From Candidatus Latescibacterota bacterium (GTDB taxonomy: Bacteria > Latescibacterota > UBA2968 > GCA-2709665), in assembly GCA_965205485.1 (NCBI GenBank), contig OZ242180.1:4224001-4288000 (forward strand): DNA of 64,000 bases, given 5' to 3'. The notes under the pieces were generated by a model. The model saw only the letters and a program-made list of their open reading frames with translations, had not been told where the DNA came from and searched no databases. Positions 28,632 through 42,178 of this stretch are shown piece after piece. How positions within the stretch are numbered: the stretch's first letter is position 1; each line of letters starts with the position of its first letter. Both the position numbers and the translations under genes were made by a program.

Positions 28632-29117
28632 TCAGCTCACTTTCGCGATGGAATCGATACGGATCTTGTCCTGAAGCTTCAGTACGCCCTCGAGCAGAGC
28701 CTCCGGCCTCGGGGGACAACCCGGGACGTAGACGTCAACCGGCACAACCCTGTCGACACCCTTTAAAACGTGGTATCCGTGCTGCCAGTACGGGCCGCCG
28801 GAGGTTGCACAGCAGCCCATCGACATCACGTACCTGGGCTCGGCCATCTGGTCGTACAGTTTCTTTACGCGAGTTGCCATTTTCAATGTAACCGTGCCGG
28901 CCACGATCATCAGATCGGACTGCCGCGGGGTGGCGCGCGGGACCATACCCAGACGCGACCAGTCGTACCGGGACGCCCCCGTGGCCATCATTTCTATTGC
29001 GCAGCACGCCAGTCCGAACGTCATGGGCCAGAGCGAGGACAACCGCGCCCAATTGACGAAATAGTCGACGGACGTCACAACGACGTTATCCTGGAATCGA
29101 CCTGTGAGCTTTCCCAT
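28632..29117 (-). CDS. nuoB: NADH-quinone oxidoreductase subunit B (operon copy)
   Basis: [39 protein letters not shown]. Confidence 0.96.
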
Positions 29118-29258
29118 AAACGGGCTTGCCTCCTGAAGCGTCAAGCCGGACGGTGCTGATGGAATTCCGTGGATGGCTGCGTAAGGAATCCGGTGAAGCG
29201 CTGCGGTCGGAACGGTTCGAACGACGCGCCGGCAACGAACCGGAGCCGGATCGAACGA

Positions 29259-29931: not shown

Positions 29932-30016
29932 AAGCGTGAATTCAGAAAACGTTATCGTGGTGACGCATAAACTATAACAAAACTAATGCCCTTTCAAGAA
30001 ATGGAAGGAGCGCGTG

Positions 30017-33937: not shown

Positions 33938-35214
33938 GCCCTACTGCACATGCCCTGGCCGAACGGCTCTCCTGCCCGCTCGTCGAACGCGCGGGGCCTT
34001 TCGATCCCCACCGTATCCGGCGGGACTTTCCGGTACTGGACCAATCCGTTCGGGGCAAGCCACTGGTCTACCTGGACAACGCCGCTACAACCCAGAAGCC
34101 CCGGGATGTACTAGACGTCCTCGAAGTCTTCTACGAAGCGGCGAATGCGAACGTACACCGCGGCGTCCATCATCTCAGCCAGATCGCAACGGATTCTTAC
34201 GAGGGTGCGCGCAACAAGGTCCGCCGGTTTCTGAACGCGGCCCACGACCGGGAGATCATCTTCACCAGCGGAACCACGGACAGCATCAATCTCGTTGCCC
34301 AGACGTTTGGGCGAAAATCCGTCGAGGCCGGCGACGAAATCCTCATAACCCAAATGGAACACCATTCGAATATCGTGCCCTGGCAGATGCTCTGTGAGGA
34401 AAGAGGCGTGAAACTCCGTGTTATCCCCATCGACGACAACGGCGAGTTGCAGATCGACAGGCTCGAGTCACTGATGAACGAACGTACGAAACTCGTGTCC
34501 GTCGTCCACGTGTCGAACGTCCTGGGCACCCTCAATCCGGTTGCTTCAATCGCGGAATCGGCGCGAGAACGCGGTATCCCCGTACTGCTGGACGGAGCAC
34601 AGGCCGCTCCTCATTTCAAGGTGGACGTTCAGGCGTTGGGGTGCGACTTCTATGCCTTCTCGGGGCACAAACTATACGGTCCGACCGGTATCGGAGTGCT
34701 CTACGGAAGAAGCGAACTGCTGGATTCGATGCCGCCATACAGGGGAGGCGGCGGCATGATTCGAGAGGTCTCGCTTGAAAAAACCACCTATGCCGATGCG
34801 CCTGCCCGTTTCGAAGCGGGCACGCCCCATATTGCCGGTTGCATCGGGCTGGGCGCCGCCATCGACTATCTGAACCGGATCGACCTGGAAGCCGCCGCCG
34901 CGTACGAGAATGAACTGTTCGCCTACGCAACAGACGCGCTTTCCGAGATATCGGGATTGAGAATCATTGGTACCGCGCAAGACAGAGTCAGCGTTATTTC
35001 CTTTGTTCTGAAAGGCGTACACCCGCACGACGTCGGTACCGTTGTCGATCAGCACGGGGTGGCGGTCCGCGCCGGACACCACTGCGCCCAACCCGTCATG
35101 CGCCACTTCAATATTCCCGCAACAACACGTGCGGCTACAGCGTTTTACAATACACGGGAAGACATCGACACGCTCGTACGGGCTTTGCACGCGGCCAGAG
35201 AGATTTTTCGTTAA
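33934..35214 (+). CDS. sufS: Cysteine desulfurase SufS
   Basis: YLDNAATTQKP, NVHRGVH, EHHSNIVPW, FSGHK (PLP Lys), RAGHHCAQP. Confidence 0.97.
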   Translation: MSPTAHALAERLSCPLVERAGPFDPHRIRRDFPVLDQSVRGKPLVYLDNAATTQKPRDVLDVLEVFYEAANANVHRGVHHLSQIATDSYEGARNKVRRFLNAAHDREIIFTSGTTDSINLVAQTFGRKSVEAGDEILITQMEHHSNIVPWQMLCEERGVKLRVIPIDDNGELQIDRLESLMNERTKLVSVVHVSNVLGTLNPVASIAESARERGIPVLLDGAQAAPHFKVDVQALGCDFYAFSGHKLYGPTGIGVLYGRSELLDSMPPYRGGGGMIREVSLEKTTYADAPARFEAGTPHIAGCIGLGAAIDYLNRIDLEAAAAYENELFAYATDALSEISGLRIIGTAQDRVSVISFVLKGVHPHDVGTVVDQHGVAVRAGHHCAQPVMRHFNIPATTRAATAFYNTREDIDTLVRALHAAREIFR

Positions 35215-35666
35215 TGTCCAACCTCAGAGAGCTGTACCAGCAGGTCATTCTTGACCACAACCGGAGTCCGCGCAACTACCGGTGCATGTGCGATGCCGAC
35301 CGGACGTCAGAGGGACACAACCCGCTGTGCGGCGACCACTTGAGCCTATATGTCAAGCTCGACGGGAGTACGATAGCAGATATTGCCTTTCAGGGCGAAG
35401 GATGCGCCATCTCCAAAGCGTCGGCATCCCTGATGACGGACGCCGTGAAGGGTCAGACCCTCGAGTGCGCGCAATCGCTCTTTGGAAGATTCCGTGACCT
35501 CGTCACAAGCGATGTGTCTACCGAACCGGCTGTCGACGGCATCGGCAAGCTGGCCGTCTTCGTTGGCGTGAGAGAATTCCCCGTGCGTATCAAATGCGCA
35601 ACCCTGGCGTGGCATACGCTCAAGGCTGCACTCGAAAACAGCAAATTGCCGGTGACCACCGAGTAG
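35214..35666 (+). CDS. sufU: SufU sulfur-transfer/scaffold protein
   Basis: LYQQVILDH, NPLCGD, GCAISKASAS, RIKCATLAW. Confidence 0.95.
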   Translation: MSNLRELYQQVILDHNRSPRNYRCMCDADRTSEGHNPLCGDHLSLYVKLDGSTIADIAFQGEGCAISKASASLMTDAVKGQTLECAQSLFGRFRDLVTSDVSTEPAVDGIGKLAVFVGVREFPVRIKCATLAWHTLKAALENSKLPVTTE

Positions 35667-35689
35667 GTATCCATCGGGAGGGTATCATC

Positions 35690-36193
35690 TTGCTCGAACG
35701 ACTGCTGAACCGTCTCTACGGAAATGAGGAAGGCGAGTCCTCGGCGCGAAGGGACGACGTAGCGGATTCCGGAGCCGCAGACGCGACGACCCCCGTGGAC
35801 ACGAGCGCGCTCACGGAGCACGCCGCCAGACGACAGGAAGAAAAGCAGGAGTCGACCGAAGCGGCCGGAACCGATGGTTCGGTCGACACGGATGTCGTCA
35901 AAGAGAACATCATCGCCGCACATCGCACGGTATTCGACCCGGAAATTCCCGTCAATATCTACGATATCGGCCTTATATACGACATCAAAGTTGAACCCTC
36001 CGGGATGACCCACGTCCGGATGACCCTCACCTCCCCCGCCTGTCCGGCCGCGGGAATCCTTCCCGGTCAGGTAGAAAGCGCTACACGATCGGTTGCCGGA
36101 GTACGCGACGTCATCCTGGACCTGACCTTCGACCCGCCATGGAACCCGGAAATGATGTCCGAAGCCGCGAGGCTCGAACTCGGGCTCCTTTAG
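35690..36193 (+). CDS. sufT: SufT/DUF59 Fe-S assembly protein with an acidic N-terminal extension
   Basis: DPEIPVNIYDIGLIY, MTLTSPACP, FDPPW..EMMSEAARLELG; TTG start after GGGAGG. Confidence 0.85.
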   Translation: MLERLLNRLYGNEEGESSARRDDVADSGAADATTPVDTSALTEHAARRQEEKQESTEAAGTDGSVDTDVVKENIIAAHRTVFDPEIPVNIYDIGLIYDIKVEPSGMTHVRMTLTSPACPAAGILPGQVESATRSVAGVRDVILDLTFDPPWNPEMMSEAARLELGLL

Positions 36194-36309
36194 GTCGACG
36201 GCGGCCGCATTCCCCCTGTGCGCCGGGAACGTTCCCGCTCAACCGCGCCGCCTTGACCCAGCGGACGGCGCGGATCAGACTCCATCCCGACAAGAATTGG
36301 GAAGGCTCC

Positions 36310-36789
36310 ATGAAATTGAGCGCAGGTGAAGAATACGGGCTTCGGTGCCTGCTCCAGATCGGCCGGCGGCAGCGAGAAACCGGCGGCGGCCTTTCCATAT
36401 CTGAAATCAGCCGGATCGAAGGCCTCTCGGTCCCGAATGTCGCAAAGCTGATGCGCCTTCTTCGGCTTGGAGGATTTGTCGAGAGCTCCCGGGGTCAGTC
36501 CGGAGGATACCGACTTGCGCAATCGGCCGACATGATTGTGGTGGGAGATGTGCTGGCCGCCCTGGGCGGGCGGATGTTCAATCCTGATTTCTGCGAAGAT
36601 CACGCGGGCCGTGAAGGGTTGTGTACGCACTCCGTCGACTGTTCCATCCGGTCGCTGTGGAGCTCGGTGCAATCTGTGATCGATCAGCTCCTCAGCCGCG
36701 TCACGCTGGATGATCTTCTGGGAGAAGAACAGGCCATGGATGCATGTCTGCAGAACGTAACCGAAGAGTTGATTCAGGTGTCGGGTTAG
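36310..36789 (+). CDS. Rrf2-family regulator with three C-terminal Cys (IscR-like Fe-S sensor)
   Basis: EYGLRCLL, SSRGQSGGYRLA, C..H.....C.....C pattern. Confidence 0.88.
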   Translation: MKLSAGEEYGLRCLLQIGRRQRETGGGLSISEISRIEGLSVPNVAKLMRLLRLGGFVESSRGQSGGYRLAQSADMIVVGDVLAALGGRMFNPDFCEDHAGREGLCTHSVDCSIRSLWSSVQSVIDQLLSRVTLDDLLGEEQAMDACLQNVTEELIQVSG

Positions 36790-36890
36790 CTGCCCGCCTG
36801 CAATGCGAGTCCAACACGTTGCATCGCGGGGGCCGCACCCGCCGTCGTAAAACCAGGTGACGACTCCAAACATACCTACCGAGGTGTTCA

Positions 36891-37385
36891 ATGGGACTTG
36901 AGACGGGCCTTGGCGACAACGTCATTACCACCACGCTGTCAAAGATGATCAACTGGGCACGCAAGTCATCACTCTGGCCGATGCCGTTCGGCACGGCTTG
37001 CTGCGCCATCGAAATGATGGCCACGCTATCCGGACGCTTCGACATGGCCCGGTTCGGCGCGGAGGCCGTACGGTTCTCACCACGACAGTCCGACCTGCTC
37101 ATCGTATCGGGCCGGATATCGATCAAGATGATGCCTGTACTCAAGAAGATATACGACCAGATGCCGGATCCGAAGTGGGTGATTTCCATGGGTGCGTGCG
37201 CATCGTCAGGAGGCGTCTTCAATACTTATACGCTGGTTCAGGGCGTGGACCAGTTTCTTCCGGTCGACGTCTACGTGCCCGGCTGTCCCCCCCGGCCCGA
37301 AGATCTGCTGTCCGCGCTTATGAAGATACAGGAAAAGATAGACCGGGAACAACCCGCAAGGTCAGCCGTGGCGCTGGAATCCTGA
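36891..37385 (+). CDS. nuoB: Second, orphan NuoB-like [4Fe-4S] subunit
   Basis: [41 protein letters not shown]; no adjacent nuoA/C/D. Confidence 0.9.
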
Positions 37386-37425
37386 ACGTCCTGCCACTGC
37401 CAATCTCTCTGAGGGGAAGGTCGAT

Positions 37426-38010
37426 ATGAATATCACCGTTACCGAAGCCGCGCAGAAGGAGGTTGTCAACCTGATCGGGAGCCAGGATTCGGACATCGTT
37501 GGCGTTCGAGTCAAGGCCGAGGCGGTGTCGCCACTGCAGGCCAATTACCGTCTCGCATTCGTTGCCCGCGGTCAGGAAGAGGATGACGACGTCGTCACGC
37601 CGTTCGAGGGGTTCAACATCTACGTAGACCCGGTAAGCGCGCCCTATGCCGAGGATATTTCGCTGGACTTCGTGGACAGCCTGATGGGCAGAGGGTTCAA
37701 AATCGAGAATCCCAACAAAGTACCGCCGCATCTGAAGGGCACGGCAGCCGAAAAGATCCAGAACATCATCGACGAAAAGATCAACCCCAGCGTCGCCATG
37801 CACGGCGGCCACATCTCACTGATCGACGTAAAGGATAACAAAGCATACGTCCAGTTCGGCGGCGGATGTCAGGGTTGCGGTATGGTGGACGTCACGCTCA
37901 AGCAGGGCGTCGAAGTTCTCATCAAGGAGGCTGTGCCGGAAATTGAAGAAATCCTCGACGTGACCGAACACGCGGACGGCACAAACCCCTATTATCAAAC
38001 CTCAAAATAG
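37426..38010 (+). CDS. nfuA: NfuA-type Fe-S carrier (degenerate A-type domain plus Nfu domain)
   Basis: ITVTEAA N-terminal domain without Cys; INPSVAMHGG, GGGCQGCG, TLKQGVE, DVTEH..GTNPY. Confidence 0.9.
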   Translation: MNITVTEAAQKEVVNLIGSQDSDIVGVRVKAEAVSPLQANYRLAFVARGQEEDDDVVTPFEGFNIYVDPVSAPYAEDISLDFVDSLMGRGFKIENPNKVPPHLKGTAAEKIQNIIDEKINPSVAMHGGHISLIDVKDNKAYVQFGGGCQGCGMVDVTLKQGVEVLIKEAVPEIEEILDVTEHADGTNPYYQTSK

Positions 38011-38025
38011 CGAGCGCAAACGACA

Positions 38026-38070
38026 AATGGCAGACACCATGGGGACCTCCCCGTTGTCTGCCGTTTTTTT
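38026..38070 (+). terminator. Intrinsic terminator after nfuA
   Basis: GGCAGACA..GGGG-ACCT-CCCC..TGTCTGCC stem followed by G and 7 T. Confidence 0.8.
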
Positions 38071-38083
38071 GGATGGTCGACCA

Positions 38084-39511
38084 TTGACGATCAATAGCCC
38101 ATCGGGTCCGTTCAAAGCTGTACTCGTGTCCACGTACGAACTGGGTCGACAGCCATTCGGTCTGGCCTCGCCGGCAGCGTGGCTGCGGAGGGCGGGCATC
38201 GATGTGGTCCAGGCCGACGTTTCGATCGAAGATTTTCCCGCCAAAGACGTGCGCGACGCCGATCTCGTGGCGTTCTACGTGCCAATGCATACCGCGACGC
38301 GTCTTGCCGTTCCACTTGCCTTGCGGGCTCGAGAGCTGAATGCCAACGCTCACCTCTGCTTTTTCGGGCTCTATGCTTCGGTCAACGAATCCTTCCTGAG
38401 AAGCCTGGGCGCACAGACCATTCTCGGCGGTGAATTCGAAAACGGTCTTCTTCAACTGTGCAATCGCCTGCGGGAGGCTTCAGGCGCGAACGGAACGCAG
38501 GAAGAACCCGTCGTTTCCCTCGCAAGACAGCATTTTCATCCGCCCGATCGTACAGGCCTTCCCAACCTGTCCCGTTACGCAAGTCTTTGCACCGGCGACG
38601 GACGTCTCAAAACCGTCGGCTATACAGAGGCAAGCCGTGGCTGCAAGCATCTCTGTCGCCATTGTCCCGTGGTGCCCGTGTACGGCGGCAGGTTCCGGAT
38701 CGTACAAAGCGACATCGTACTTGACGACATCGCCCAACAGGTCGCATCGGGTGCGGGCCACATCACGTTTGGCGATCCTGACTTCTTCAACGGCATCGGC
38801 CACGCCCTGCCGCTTGTCGAAGCGCTCCACGGGAGATTTCCCGATCTCACCTACGACGTTACCGTAAAGATCGAACATCTCTTGCGATTTCGCCGCTATC
38901 TGCCCACCCTCCGAGATACCGGGTGTGCACTCGTTACGACCGCGGTCGAGTCCCTCGACAACCGTGTTCTCACGCTGCTGGACAAGGGTCATACAGTCGA
39001 GGACTTTTACGAAGTCGTGGACGTCTTCACGAAACACGGGCTCGTGATGAATCCGACGTTCATTCCGTTTACGCCCTGGATCACCATGGAGGGATATGCC
39101 AGCTTTCTGGACACGCTCGCCGGCCTCGACCTGATCGAGTACGTCTCTCCCGTTCAGCTCACCATCAGGCTGCTTATTCCCGGGCAATCAAAGCTGCTGG
39201 ACCTTGCCGACGTGCGCAATTCTGTGGGTCCGTTCGAACCGGCAGCGTTGTCCTACCCCTGGGCGCATCCCGACGCCCGTCTGGACCGGCTTCAGAATGA
39301 ACTGACCCGGCTGGTCACACGGCTTCAGAACAGGGACGCTCCCCGGCGTGAGATCTTCCACAGGATCCGTTCGCGTGTGTACGGCCTGACGGACCGCCCC
39401 GCCCCAATCGCGGGTTTTGATGCGGACTCGGCCCGCCTGTCGCTTCCCCGGCTCACCGAACCCTGGTACTGCTGAGCGGAACCCACCGAAGAGCAGTTCG
39501 CTCTTGTCTGA
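38084..39511 (+). CDS. CUAEP-tail radical SAM selenoprotein (B12-binding-like N-domain plus radical SAM); UGA 39473-75 read as Sec
   Basis: STYELGRQPFGLASPAAWL; CxxxCxxC (GCKHLCRHC); FGDPDF. The frame continues WYC-TGA-AEPTEEQFALV-TGA. The TTG 38084 start is chosen because the upstream ATG lies in the terminator. Confidence 0.85.
39489..39505 (+). promoter_or_regulatory. Putative bacterial SECIS hairpin
   Basis: AAGAGC-AGTTC-GCTCTT stem-loop starting 14 nt after the in-frame UGA, with a G in the apical loop. Confidence 0.65.
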
Positions 39512-39582
39512 CCTGTGAAGCCACTCGAAACAACAACACTTCCTTTCATCAATCCCCGCCCAACCGGCTTGTTCACTGCCGT

Positions 39583-40803
39583 TCAATCCTCAATCACGAC
39601 GTCCAGCAGTCCATTGGCCTCCCTGAGCGCCGTTTCCACCGCCTCGGGCGTCCTCCCGCGCGCGAAGATGAACCCCAGATACCGGTCTCCTTCGGGCAGC
39701 GGCTGAACGGTCTGCCCCCTTGGAACCGTGATCACGACGTCCAGAATTCCCGGCATACGCCGTGCACGTGCCGTCCCGCGCACCTGCCGAAGCGTTCCCG
39801 GCTTCGGCACCGGAAGCATGATCACTCCCGCCGCCGTATCCTCCCGGAGTAAATCGCCCGGAGCTCGACCCGCTGCCTGGCGCAGGATCAGTTCTTCCAG
39901 CGACACGCCCGCGCCGAAGCGCAATACCCGCGAACACAGCCCGCCAATGGATCGCGCCGCGATTTCCACCACGTGGATGCCACGCGCGTTCAGCCGTAAT
40001 TCCGCGTGTACCGGCCCCACGGTCAATCCCAGGGCCGTTGCGGCCTGTTGCGCGGCGACGCTTATCCGCGCCTGATCGCAATCTGATAGCCGGGACGGCG
40101 TAATGTACAGCGTCTCGGCGAAATATGGACCGCAGAGCGGGTCCGGTTTATCGAACAACGCGAGGGTGTGAAGCTCACCGTCGACAAGCAATCCCTCCAG
40201 CGCGACTTCCCGGCCGGGAATGTAGTCCTCCACCAGAATAGCCTCGGGCAAGCAATCTTCGGATCCCGAAATCATCCCCAGAATTCGATTGAAAGCAGCT
40301 ACGAAATCCGCCTCCTGGTCCGCCCGAATTACGCCGCGGCTCGCCGAGAGAGAAACGGGCTTCAATACGCACGGATAGTCGACGGTTGCGGCCGCTTCCG
40401 CCGGTTCGTCCCGAATTGAAAAAAGCCTGAACCCTGGCGAGGGCAGGCCTTTTTCGGCAAGCATCCGGCGCATCACGTGTTTGTAACGGGACGCCCGGAC
40501 GGACGAAACCGGATTGTGCGGCAGTCCAAGCGCCTCACAGGCCATCGCGGCGAGAACGACGGTCTCGTCGTCGACGCCGACCACCGCCCGGACGGGGTAT
40601 TCCTTCGAATGGGCGACGATCTTGCCGACCGATACTGCCGGCCTGGTGAAGTCCAGCGCGAGCGTCTTTCCGGGCGTCAGGCTCGCCAGCGCCTGGCGGC
40701 GGTCCGATCCAACGACCACGGCAACGTTAAGTGCAGCCGCCGCGGCCATGAAATCGCGGGTACGGTAGGTCGAAGTCGGAATAAGCAGCAGAAGCCGGTC
40801 CAT
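39583..40803 (-). CDS. ATP-grasp ligase (L-amino acid ligase-like)
   Basis: YPCVLKPVSLSASRGV, LVEDYIPGREVALEG, HAELR, EIAARSIGG; C-terminal YLGFIFARG. Confidence 0.88.
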   Translation of the reverse strand: MDRLLLLIPTSTYRTRDFMAAAAALNVAVVVGSDRRQALASLTPGKTLALDFTRPAVSVGKIVAHSKEYPVRAVVGVDDETVVLAAMACEALGLPHNPVSSVRASRYKHVMRRMLAEKGLPSPGFRLFSIRDEPAEAAATVDYPCVLKPVSLSASRGVIRADQEADFVAAFNRILGMISGSEDCLPEAILVEDYIPGREVALEGLLVDGELHTLALFDKPDPLCGPYFAETLYITPSRLSDCDQARISVAAQQAATALGLTVGPVHAELRLNARGIHVVEIAARSIGGLCSRVLRFGAGVSLEELILRQAAGRAPGDLLREDTAAGVIMLPVPKPGTLRQVRGTARARRMPGILDVVITVPRGQTVQPLPEGDRYLGFIFARGRTPEAVETALREANGLLDVVIED

Positions 40804-40849
40804 GGCCGACCCAGTCTTGGCAGCCCGTTGGAAAAGCCCATCCGGACTG

Positions 40850-41251
40850 CTACGCGCTCACGTCGTCGTCGCCGGAATTGGTGTCGGCTTCCGCATCGGC
40901 TTTCTTCCGGTCTCGTTTCTCCTTCAAGGCTTTCACTTTCGACAAGAGGTCGGGCGCCAGATCCAATAACCCCTTGATGGAGCCTTCCTTTTCCTGGACG
41001 GGAAGAATCTGGGCCTTTCCGTCTTGAATCACGACAAATGCCATGGGTTCCACGGATGCCCCGCCGCCGGTGCCGCTCCCGCTGCCGTCCGACTTGTCCC
41101 CGCCGCCACCCGCGCCGAACCCGAACGAAATCCTGGAGACGGGCACCACGACGGTGCCCCCGATATCGATTGGCTCCCCGACGACCGTCTCGGCCTTGAC
41201 GATTTGCCTGAATTCCGTCATCACCGTCCTGATGAGATCCTCAACTGACAT
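40850..41251 (-). CDS. GerW/YtfJ family protein
   Basis: TVVGEPI....VVPVSRISFGFGAGGG...GGGASVEPMAFVVI. Confidence 0.85.
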   Translation of the reverse strand: MSVEDLIRTVMTEFRQIVKAETVVGEPIDIGGTVVVPVSRISFGFGAGGGGDKSDGSGSGTGGGASVEPMAFVVIQDGKAQILPVQEKEGSIKGLLDLAPDLLSKVKALKEKRDRKKADAEADTNSGDDDVSA

Positions 41252-41275
41252 AATCCCTCCTTGAAGCCCGCTCAC

Positions 41276-41974
41276 TCAACCCGTGGCGCCAGCGCCGATA
41301 ATGTCCTGGTCGGACCGCTTCCGGTTGCGTCGTTCCGAAACCCATGCGAGCGCAACGCGCCATCCGAGACAGACGGAGGCCAACAGGAGCCTGTGGGGAT
41401 AGATCTGGATTTCCACCCGGCCTTCCCCGTCCAGCCGCTGTGTCTGGAAATCGGGTATCACGTGGACGCTTCCCGTTGCACCGGCCAGAGACGATCCGGC
41501 CACGATGCATCCGTAAACCTGTCCGGTCGTGGCCGGATCGGATGCGCCGAACGTTATCTTGCATTCAATGCGACGAAGACGGAAGCCGTTCAGAAAACGC
41601 AACGCGGAACGCCGCAAGGGCAACGTCAGGTTTTTTAAACGCCTTCCGGCCCGCACGAGCCGTTCAACCTTTGCCGAAAACCTGTCAGAAACCTCCGCTT
41701 CCGCCCTGCGCGTTGCGTCAGGTCGCCTTTTCTTCTTCCTGCCTCTTCCCGTTCTCAATCGCGCAACCCAAACCGTCCACCAGCCCAGAATCGCGCCCGC
41801 ACGCCAACCGCCGTCAGTGTAGAAAAGCCGGATACCCGCCAGACCGATCCACGGCCTCAAGCGGATGTCCAGGGTCGGACCACACCCTGAACCGTTTTCG
41901 CCGTACACCCGGAGACGCATCGGCGCGAGGACGATCAGGAAGCACAAAAACAACAAGAGCAGGAGGAAATCCAT
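41276..41974 (-). CDS. DUF2953/YtfI-like protein
   Basis: N-terminal TM segment; FGASDPATTGQVYG and PDF motifs; directly upstream of the ytfJ-like gene. Confidence 0.7.
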   Translation of the reverse strand: MDFLLLLLFLCFLIVLAPMRLRVYGENGSGCGPTLDIRLRPWIGLAGIRLFYTDGGWRAGAILGWWTVWVARLRTGRGRKKKRRPDATRRAEAEVSDRFSAKVERLVRAGRRLKNLTLPLRRSALRFLNGFRLRRIECKITFGASDPATTGQVYGCIVAGSSLAGATGSVHVIPDFQTQRLDGEGRVEIQIYPHRLLLASVCLGWRVALAWVSERRNRKRSDQDIIGAGATG

Positions 41975-42178
41975 ATGACCAACTCCTTATAACTGTTTCA
42001 CTTACGATCAATATGCACATTGCCTTCCGATTGTCAAGCGATTTATATGTTGATCGGCGCGTCTCATCCGATATATTAAAAAGCGCGGTGCCGACTGGCG
42101 AGCGCGAGGCAACCGAGTTTCCGGCCTCAACTGAATCGGCGTCAATTCAACAGGAGCGCGCCTGTGCAGAAAAATCCG

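Follow-up and report, generated by a model that had tools for sequence, protein, structure and literature searches.

In the 64,000-nucleotide stretch of Latescibacterota DNA analysed here (the window), a radical SAM gene lies between an NfuA-like Fe-S carrier gene, the final gene of a suf-like run beginning at 30014, and a convergent gene of the L-amino acid ligase type (Table 1; L numbers denote related loci). Read from TTG at 38084, its frame reaches TEPWYC, meets an in-frame TGA (39473-39475) and goes on as AEPTEEQFALV to a second TGA (39509-39511); this continuation, which an earlier note on the same DNA had read, was reproduced exactly from the sequence. The start at 38084 is backed by L008, which has ATG at the codon that aligns with it, and the longer ATG start given by the ORF caller (38027) falls within the terminator-like hairpin that precedes the gene. 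Homologues were taken as the best 80 of at least 584 loci in species-representative genomes (hereafter the best 80 loci), and 38 of these 80 terminate 11 residues past the U/C position. Read-through of the second TGA was also considered, and is ruled out by the TAA that L007 and L009 carry at its position and by weak folding downstream.

Table 1. Coordinates of the features at the locus and of the gene cassettes found in other lineages.
Feature	Position	Strand	Remarks
NfuA-like Fe-S carrier gene	37426..38010	+	PF01521 + PF01106; TIGR03341 161 bits, below cut-off 269
Terminator-like hairpin with T-run, nfuA to radical SAM start	38025..38069	+	-27.6 kcal/mol, z -5.6; also in L007, L008, L009
Predicted CUAEP-tail radical SAM selenoprotein gene	38084..39511	+	475 aa; B12-binding-like N-terminal domain, radical SAM barrel, C-terminal tail
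CxxxCxxC [4Fe-4S] motif, CKHLCRHC, C187/C191/C194	38642..38665	+	invariant in 80/80 loci (best 80 of at least 584); aligns with ArsL motif
Predicted Cys463-Sec464, TGC-TGA	39470..39475	+	aligned codon in 80 loci and 33/33 phylum matches
Predicted SECIS hairpin, 6 bp, loop AGUUC	39489..39505	+	overlaps codons for TEEQFAL; TGA-vs-Cys contrast, compensatory changes
True stop codon, TGA	39509..39511	+	TAA at same place in L007, L009; downstream folding weak
ATP-grasp gene, L-amino acid ligase type, convergent with radical SAM gene	39583..40803	-	invariant Cys290 in ARxIGGLC
CUAEP radical SAM + CpaM + HgcAB-like cassette	L037:9515-12249; L063:9603-12282		
Metagenome cassette loci	L093, L094, L097, L098, L100, L103, L106, L109, L110, L111		all Sec form

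The terminator-like hairpin, kept in L007-L009, ends about 15 bases ahead of the radical SAM start. Since this leaves little room for a promoter or leader, the gene is probably expressed by read-through or from an overlapping promoter. A promoter and terminator scan returned chance-level matches only and missed this hairpin, and an Rfam scan of 35000-42000 gave two matches, both at chance level. Within the suf-like run, a second, stand-alone nuoB-family gene (36891-37385) sits between an Rrf2 regulator and nfuA; the other nuoB-like ORF (28632-29144) lies among nuo-like genes.

Evidence for recoding of the UGA at 39473

The codon that aligns with UGA 39473 is TGA in 48, TGC in 27 and TGT in 5 of the best 80 loci. 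The CCAEP form envisaged in the earlier note is thus found in 32 of the 80, and A-E-P continues in frame after that codon in all of them. Among the 151 genomes sampled from the phylum, 33 carry an NF040546 match over the cut-off, each with one TGA. Cys forms appear nested within TGA clades at several places in a quick tree.

A search for the selenocysteine machinery found selA, selB, selC and selD all present in the source genome: selA (3225171), selB (3226583) and the tRNA-Sec gene selC (3228602) are clustered (G000 3225171-3228699), and selD, at 2394761, carries its own in-frame TGA with a similar 7-bp hairpin. Genomes with the TGA form have selA in 44 of 48 cases, against 20 of 32 for the Cys form, a difference with a Fisher p of 0.003 that overstates its significance, since related genomes do not count as independent; of the four TGA-form genomes without selA, three are assemblies of less than 2 Mb. 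In the phylum sample, selA is present in 32 of the 33 carriers.

The 6-bp hairpin that the earlier note had placed 14 nt downstream of the UGA is there as described, with stem AAGAGC/GCUCUU and its first base the 14th after the UGA. By itself it does not stand out from chance: its z is -0.68 and 48 of 200 shuffles fold equally well, and a lenient SECIS-like rule is passed by 578 of the genome's 3186 frames that end in TGA and span 250 codons or more (shadow frames included). Comparatively, the evidence is strong. Only 109 of 5000 synonymous recodings of the tail leave all six pairs intact. The stem is present in 47 of 48 TGA homologues vs 5 of 32 Cys homologues among the best 80 loci, in a count that allowed two registers, the second chosen after the data had been inspected, and the mean folding energy is -9.7 kcal/mol at TGA loci vs -3.4 kcal/mol at Cys loci. 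In an alignment of the window with 40 of these 48 TGA homologues, pairing holds in 84.6% of cells, vs 44-55% in a control with the partners slid, and both sides have changed in 27 cells.

That UGA 39473 is a real stop, with the protein ending at WYC, is scarcely credible on these data. It is true that 109 of the best 120 database proteins end at W-x-C, that the hairpin taken alone lacks significance, and that the support for selenocysteine is comparative. However, such W-x-C ends are the expected output of table-11 gene callers, and a real stop does not account for the Cys codons at 32 of the best 80 loci, the in-frame AEP at all 80, the association of both hairpin and selA with TGA, or the 22 bits gained on the NF040546 model by reading through. 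The proposal of a hidden selenoprotein is borne out by the Sec machinery in the genome, the Cys that homologues have at this codon, the sequence conserved beyond the UGA and a hairpin specific to the Sec form: SelB almost certainly reads UGA 39473 as selenocysteine via the hairpin just downstream, yielding a predicted 475-aa NF040546 enzyme that ends W-Y-C-U-A-E-P-T-E-E-Q-F-A-L-V.

Family, fold and relation to ArsL

The protein scores 609.3 bits against NCBIfam NF040546 when read through and 587.1 bits when truncated, the cut-off being 500. Both hallmarks of the family, the CxxxCxxC motif and the C-(U/C)-A-E-P tail (C463-U464-A-E-P), are present, the match is full-length, and no difference from the family was found. 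Therefore it is a plain member of a curated family, as the earlier note had recognised from the CUAEP/CCAEP tail. One preprint calls NF040546 uncharacterized (10.1101/2022.07.06.499078). In a literature search on CUAEP/CCAEP that covered few subscription papers, this was the sole relevant paper and no biochemical study of the family was found; passages of PMC13149037, PMC5322559 and PMC7438021 gave nothing on it.

An AF2 model, computed with Cys for Sec and with one extra terminal residue from the true stop, has a mean pLDDT of 91.6, with the tail at about 78-81 and a preceding linker at 62. It comprises a B12-binding-like domain and a radical SAM barrel, nearest in fold to AprD4 (the best match), TsrM and OxsB; PF02310 misses the protein, yet is listed for many homologues. 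A PDB sequence search returned no relative of the radical SAM protein and no ArsL structure. The invariant C281 opens a barrel strand in the model, in a GC motif that we take to be structural, and its candidacy as a replacement third ligand was considered and put aside.

The tails vary in length among the best 80 loci, with 6 to 38 residues after the U/C and V, F, I or L as the last residue in 74 of the 80, hinting at a docking role for the extreme C-terminus. An actinomycete subclade (L116, L117, L119, L120) has a CCSEP tail and adjoins aldehyde dehydrogenase, EthD, TetR and, in some cases, Ldi-like genes; one of its genomes has two copies, and the subclade possibly acts on a different substrate.

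By sequence, the closest named relative is ArsL, the enzyme of C-As bond formation in arsinothricin. ArsL (NF040542) is the next-best family at 274.3 bits (E 2e-81), below its cut-off of 450 bits, and the family after it reaches only 2e-10; identity to an annotated ArsL is 34% over residues 10-403. The two share the two-domain architecture and have a vicinal Cys pair at their C-terminal ends; of 136 family-conserved positions, 63 are common to all three RCCLKC-tail proteins compared. However, the other 73 differ from at least one of these three ArsL-type proteins, including the PMHTATR motif and the third tail Cys. The ArsL tail is C-C-x-x-C, whereas here it is C-U-x-x-P, reached after an insertion of about 45 residues, and all of the best 80 loci have Pro where ArsL has its third arsenic-binding Cys. 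Of the arsM, arsQ and ars-operon context of ArsL, nothing was found here in the flanking ORFs scanned or in the genome. Given the Pro at the third ligand and the 73 differing positions, the enzyme may work like ArsL, but it is not ArsL.

In ArsL, SAM is split into methylthioadenosine and an ACP species, with an ACP radical formed, and arsenite binding requires the CCxxC tail (10.1101/2024.02.01.577332). A later preprint reports mass spectrometry in support of arsenite bound by all three cysteines, and SAM bound by ArsL as in a canonical enzyme (10.64898/2026.04.29.721666). Because of the latter, ACP chemistry is not readable from sequence.

Two RCCLKC-tail (ArsL-type) clusters on Bacillota plasmids (L089:3330-4858 and L090:3118-6770) also hold an ATP-grasp gene, in one case beside arsM and arsN1, and a carboxymuconolactone-decarboxylase-family gene. 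These two genes suggest that arsinothricin-like products may come in peptide form. The ligases linked to CUAEP and to RCCLKC enzymes are only 21-26% identical, and their orthology was considered but is unsupported.

Partner genes

For the pathway, the convergent ATP-grasp ligase gene, which the earlier note missed, offers the best lead. Its product matches PF18130, PF13535 and PF18603 (ATPgrasp_N, ATP-grasp_4 and LAL_C2), all over the Pfam cut-offs, and falls below every NCBIfam cut-off. The best PDB relative is 3VOT (BL00235; E 2.6e-35), which makes Met-Gly and Met-Met according to PMC6920838. The ligase has the three-domain LAL architecture in common with BL00235 and BacD, but is distant from both and has its own invariant IGGLC motif, whose Cys290 is kept in 48 of 48 aligned orthologues. 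An ESM Atlas search with it returned generic ATP-grasp clusters only. In the phylum sample, ligase and radical SAM gene occur in the identical 33 of 151 genomes, three of which have the two genes 1.3 Mb apart or on different contigs. Among the best 80 loci, the ligase adjoins the radical SAM gene in 53; of the other 27, 17 belong to genomes that have it at another place.

Of the 33 carriers, 29 have a DUF169 gene (G000 C1 2117604-2118383 in the source genome), vs 5 of the other 118 phylum genomes, and it adjoins 11 of the best 80 loci. Its co-occurrence with the pair and its adjacency make it a likely third component. The commonest neighbours at the best 80 loci are Fe-S related, namely YggX (35), aconitase (26) and Nfu/IscA-type (14), a single Acidobacteriota clade contributing most of the YggX and aconitase counts. 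YggX was not found in the source genome, so here it is ruled out as an obligatory part of the system. The radical SAM gene itself occurs once per genome, in all 22 genomes of its family, with housekeeping genes around it.

Other lineages show a different context. In genomes free of the ligase, 7 of 10 loci have a metal-related neighbour (MerB-family, DF, HgcAB-like, SaoD/DsrE or ArsR-family) vs 2 of the 70 others among the best 80, a count that is biased because the queries came partly from the same loci. For example, L037 and L063 have the order radical SAM, DUF169, CpaM (NF043040) and HgcAB-like fusion (NF043039), the latter two over their cut-offs. A metagenome scan with the L063 fusion, thus seeded from a CUAEP-linked locus and returning kin that are not independent, gave 25 loci, in 10 of which a CUAEP enzyme, always of TGA form, stands next to CpaM and the fusion. 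Of the close loci, 11 reach far enough upstream, and these 10 are among them; nine close loci are too short, and five distant ones (35-45%) lack the CUAEP enzyme. In L098 the radical SAM gene is split over two frames. The cassettes are flanked by MerB-family (3), MerR (3), MerT/HMA, CsoR-type repressor, DF selenoprotein and SaoD/DsrE genes, the MerB-family proteins scoring below the NCBIfam MerB cut-offs. In four loci (L094, L100, L103, L106), genes for 2-oxoacid dehydrogenase E1 and E2 in divergent orientation lie beside the CpaM-type cassette, upstream of the radical SAM gene, with NifU-like and SaoD/DsrE genes downstream.

A tblastn search of the source genome did not find the members of this cassette. 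Our literature search, which covered few subscription papers, found no paper linking the NF040546 family to ATP-grasp or HgcAB-like genes, or the CpaM/HgcAB-like cassette to the CUAEP family. Two preprints bear on the cassette proteins: fused hgcAB of P. furiosus does not methylate Hg, the function of other fusions being unconfirmed (10.1101/2022.11.21.517362), and DUF169 and UbiE-like methyltransferase genes lie near hgcA-like genes of Nitrospina (10.1101/648329).

Actinomycete Cys forms without the ligase occur in further settings: L012 (9452-14594) adjoins aminotransferase, DUF169 and MerB-family genes, L081 (6414-14187) ArsR, NRPS, CmlA-like and MbtH genes, and L068 (5324-11796) ArsR, cation efflux, DUF169 and carbamoyltransferase genes.

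A candidate pathway and its meaning

The partner genes suggest that an unusual amino acid is made and then joined into a dipeptide by the neighbouring ligase. We infer the chemical steps as follows. SAM would be cleaved at its C-gamma-S bond on the [4Fe-4S] cluster, like in ArsL, and its 3-amino-3-carboxypropyl group would be passed to a soft, thiophilic atom that the Cys-Sec pair holds. Since the ligands number two vs the three of ArsL, a two-coordinate substrate is more likely than free arsenite, and might be an already alkylated As(III) or Sb(III), or an Hg-like metal. The product would be a non-protein amino acid shaped like methionine, and the L-amino acid ligase inherited together with the enzyme may join it to a second amino acid. 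ArsM methylates after ArsL, according to PMC8552651; in other lineages, a corrinoid methylation pair (CpaM and the HgcAB-like fusion) might take the place of ArsM and methylate the product. The Nfu, YggX and Suf neighbours would service the oxygen-labile cluster. By analogy to ArsL, we tentatively favour such ACP transfer followed by ligation, rating its chances at slightly short of even. Against it, the gene is single-copy, present in 22 of 22 genomes and in a housekeeping setting, unlike a resistance or antibiotic island.

The earlier note had further proposed that the vicinal Cys-Sec tail binds a soft metal or metalloid, which is plausible, given that ArsL is the nearest named family and that sister loci lie among CpaM, HgcAB-like, MerB, MerR and MerT genes. 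Haft's preprint likewise takes the Cys-Sec dipeptide as suggesting contact with heavy metals (10.1101/2022.07.06.499078). The dipeptide is also shared with CU-motif selenoproteins of organometallic systems (the SAO locus and HgcA), and SaoD/DsrE-family and HgcAB-like genes adjoin some homologues; however, the folds are unrelated and those neighbours were not found in the source genome. The analogy carries less far for arsenic, considering the Pro at the third arsenic-binding position. In the 97%-complete source genome, no Acr3, no ArsM over the cut-off and no LMWPc-type ArsC were found, and tblastn with single ArsB, ArsC, ArsR, ArsH, ArsQ, HgcAB-like, MerB and YggX queries gave no match; a partial ArsN1-like match (36-42%) was obtained. 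In the phylum sample, 5 of 33 carriers have Acr3, a lower share than the 39 of 118 among non-carriers. With no arsenic resistance or methylation genes found in the genome, and with Fe-S neighbours, a role for arsenic specifically is doubtful, and we consider it unlikely to be the atom involved.

Alternatively, the same recoding and ACP chemistry could serve sulfur or selenium. The tail would then carry S/Se, as a persulfide or selenosulfide, or be a redox arm like that of thioredoxin reductase, the product would be of the homocysteine or selenohomocysteine type, and the ligase would make a small thiol or selenol dipeptide that helps to maintain Fe-S clusters and to buffer metals. Redox arms with Cys-Sec at the C-terminus are known. 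The predominance of Fe-S related genes among the neighbours of the best 80 loci, the position of the gene here after a suf-like run, its vertical, single-copy inheritance in a genome in which arsenic resistance genes were not found, and the SaoD/DsrE and NifU-like genes that flank CpaM-type loci are all consistent with such a role. However, homocysteine can be made from SAM with no radical enzyme, a terminator-like hairpin stands between nfuA and the radical SAM gene, YggX was not found in the source genome and its count, like that of aconitase, stems chiefly from one Acidobacteriota clade, and the MerR, MerT, MerB and HgcAB-like neighbours are explained less directly. We regard sulfur or selenium chemistry as not very probable.

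Rather improbable, in our view, is a canonical 5'-deoxyadenosyl (or cobalamin-assisted) radical enzyme acting on an organic metabolite or protein, in which Cys-Sec would be an accessory metal or redox site and the likeness to ArsL a matter of ancestry only. The fold does match AprD4, TsrM, OxsB, QCMT and MiaB, none of which is an ACP transferase, no ArsL structure surfaced in the PDB sequence search, many conserved active-site positions differ from ArsL, and no metal gene was recognised beside the actinomycete CCSEP clade, with its aldehyde dehydrogenase, EthD and Ldi-like neighbours. However, ArsL is far closer in sequence than any of these enzymes, a C-terminal vicinal Cys pair is common to both families, and an amino acid product would match the reliance on an amino acid ligase.

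Returning to the ArsL-like reading, its broadest form holds that NF040546 is a second, much larger class of ACP-transferring radical SAM enzymes, whose Cys-Sec tail makes a carbon-metalloid amino acid that is finished by the ligase (in the source genome and at 70 of the best 80 of at least 584 loci) or by the CpaM and HgcAB-like pair. We put this forward as speculation, with the odds against it. If true, an organometalloid metabolite would be widespread among Acidobacteriota, Latescibacterota-like and further uncultured lineages, and a branch of the HgcAB-like fusion proteins would be given a job.

The recoding is a routine annotation fix, and the gene is a member of an already named family. 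Since 109 of the best 120 database proteins end at the Sec codon, they lack what is probably the business end of the enzyme. The family is large, with at least 584 relatives in species-representative genomes, and now has concrete partners in a ligase of identical distribution, DUF169 and, elsewhere, CpaM with the HgcAB-like fusion. What matters is the pathway rather than the recoding: if the chemistry is ArsL-like, non-canonical SAM cleavage and microbial organometalloid synthesis would extend far beyond the arsinothricin producers.
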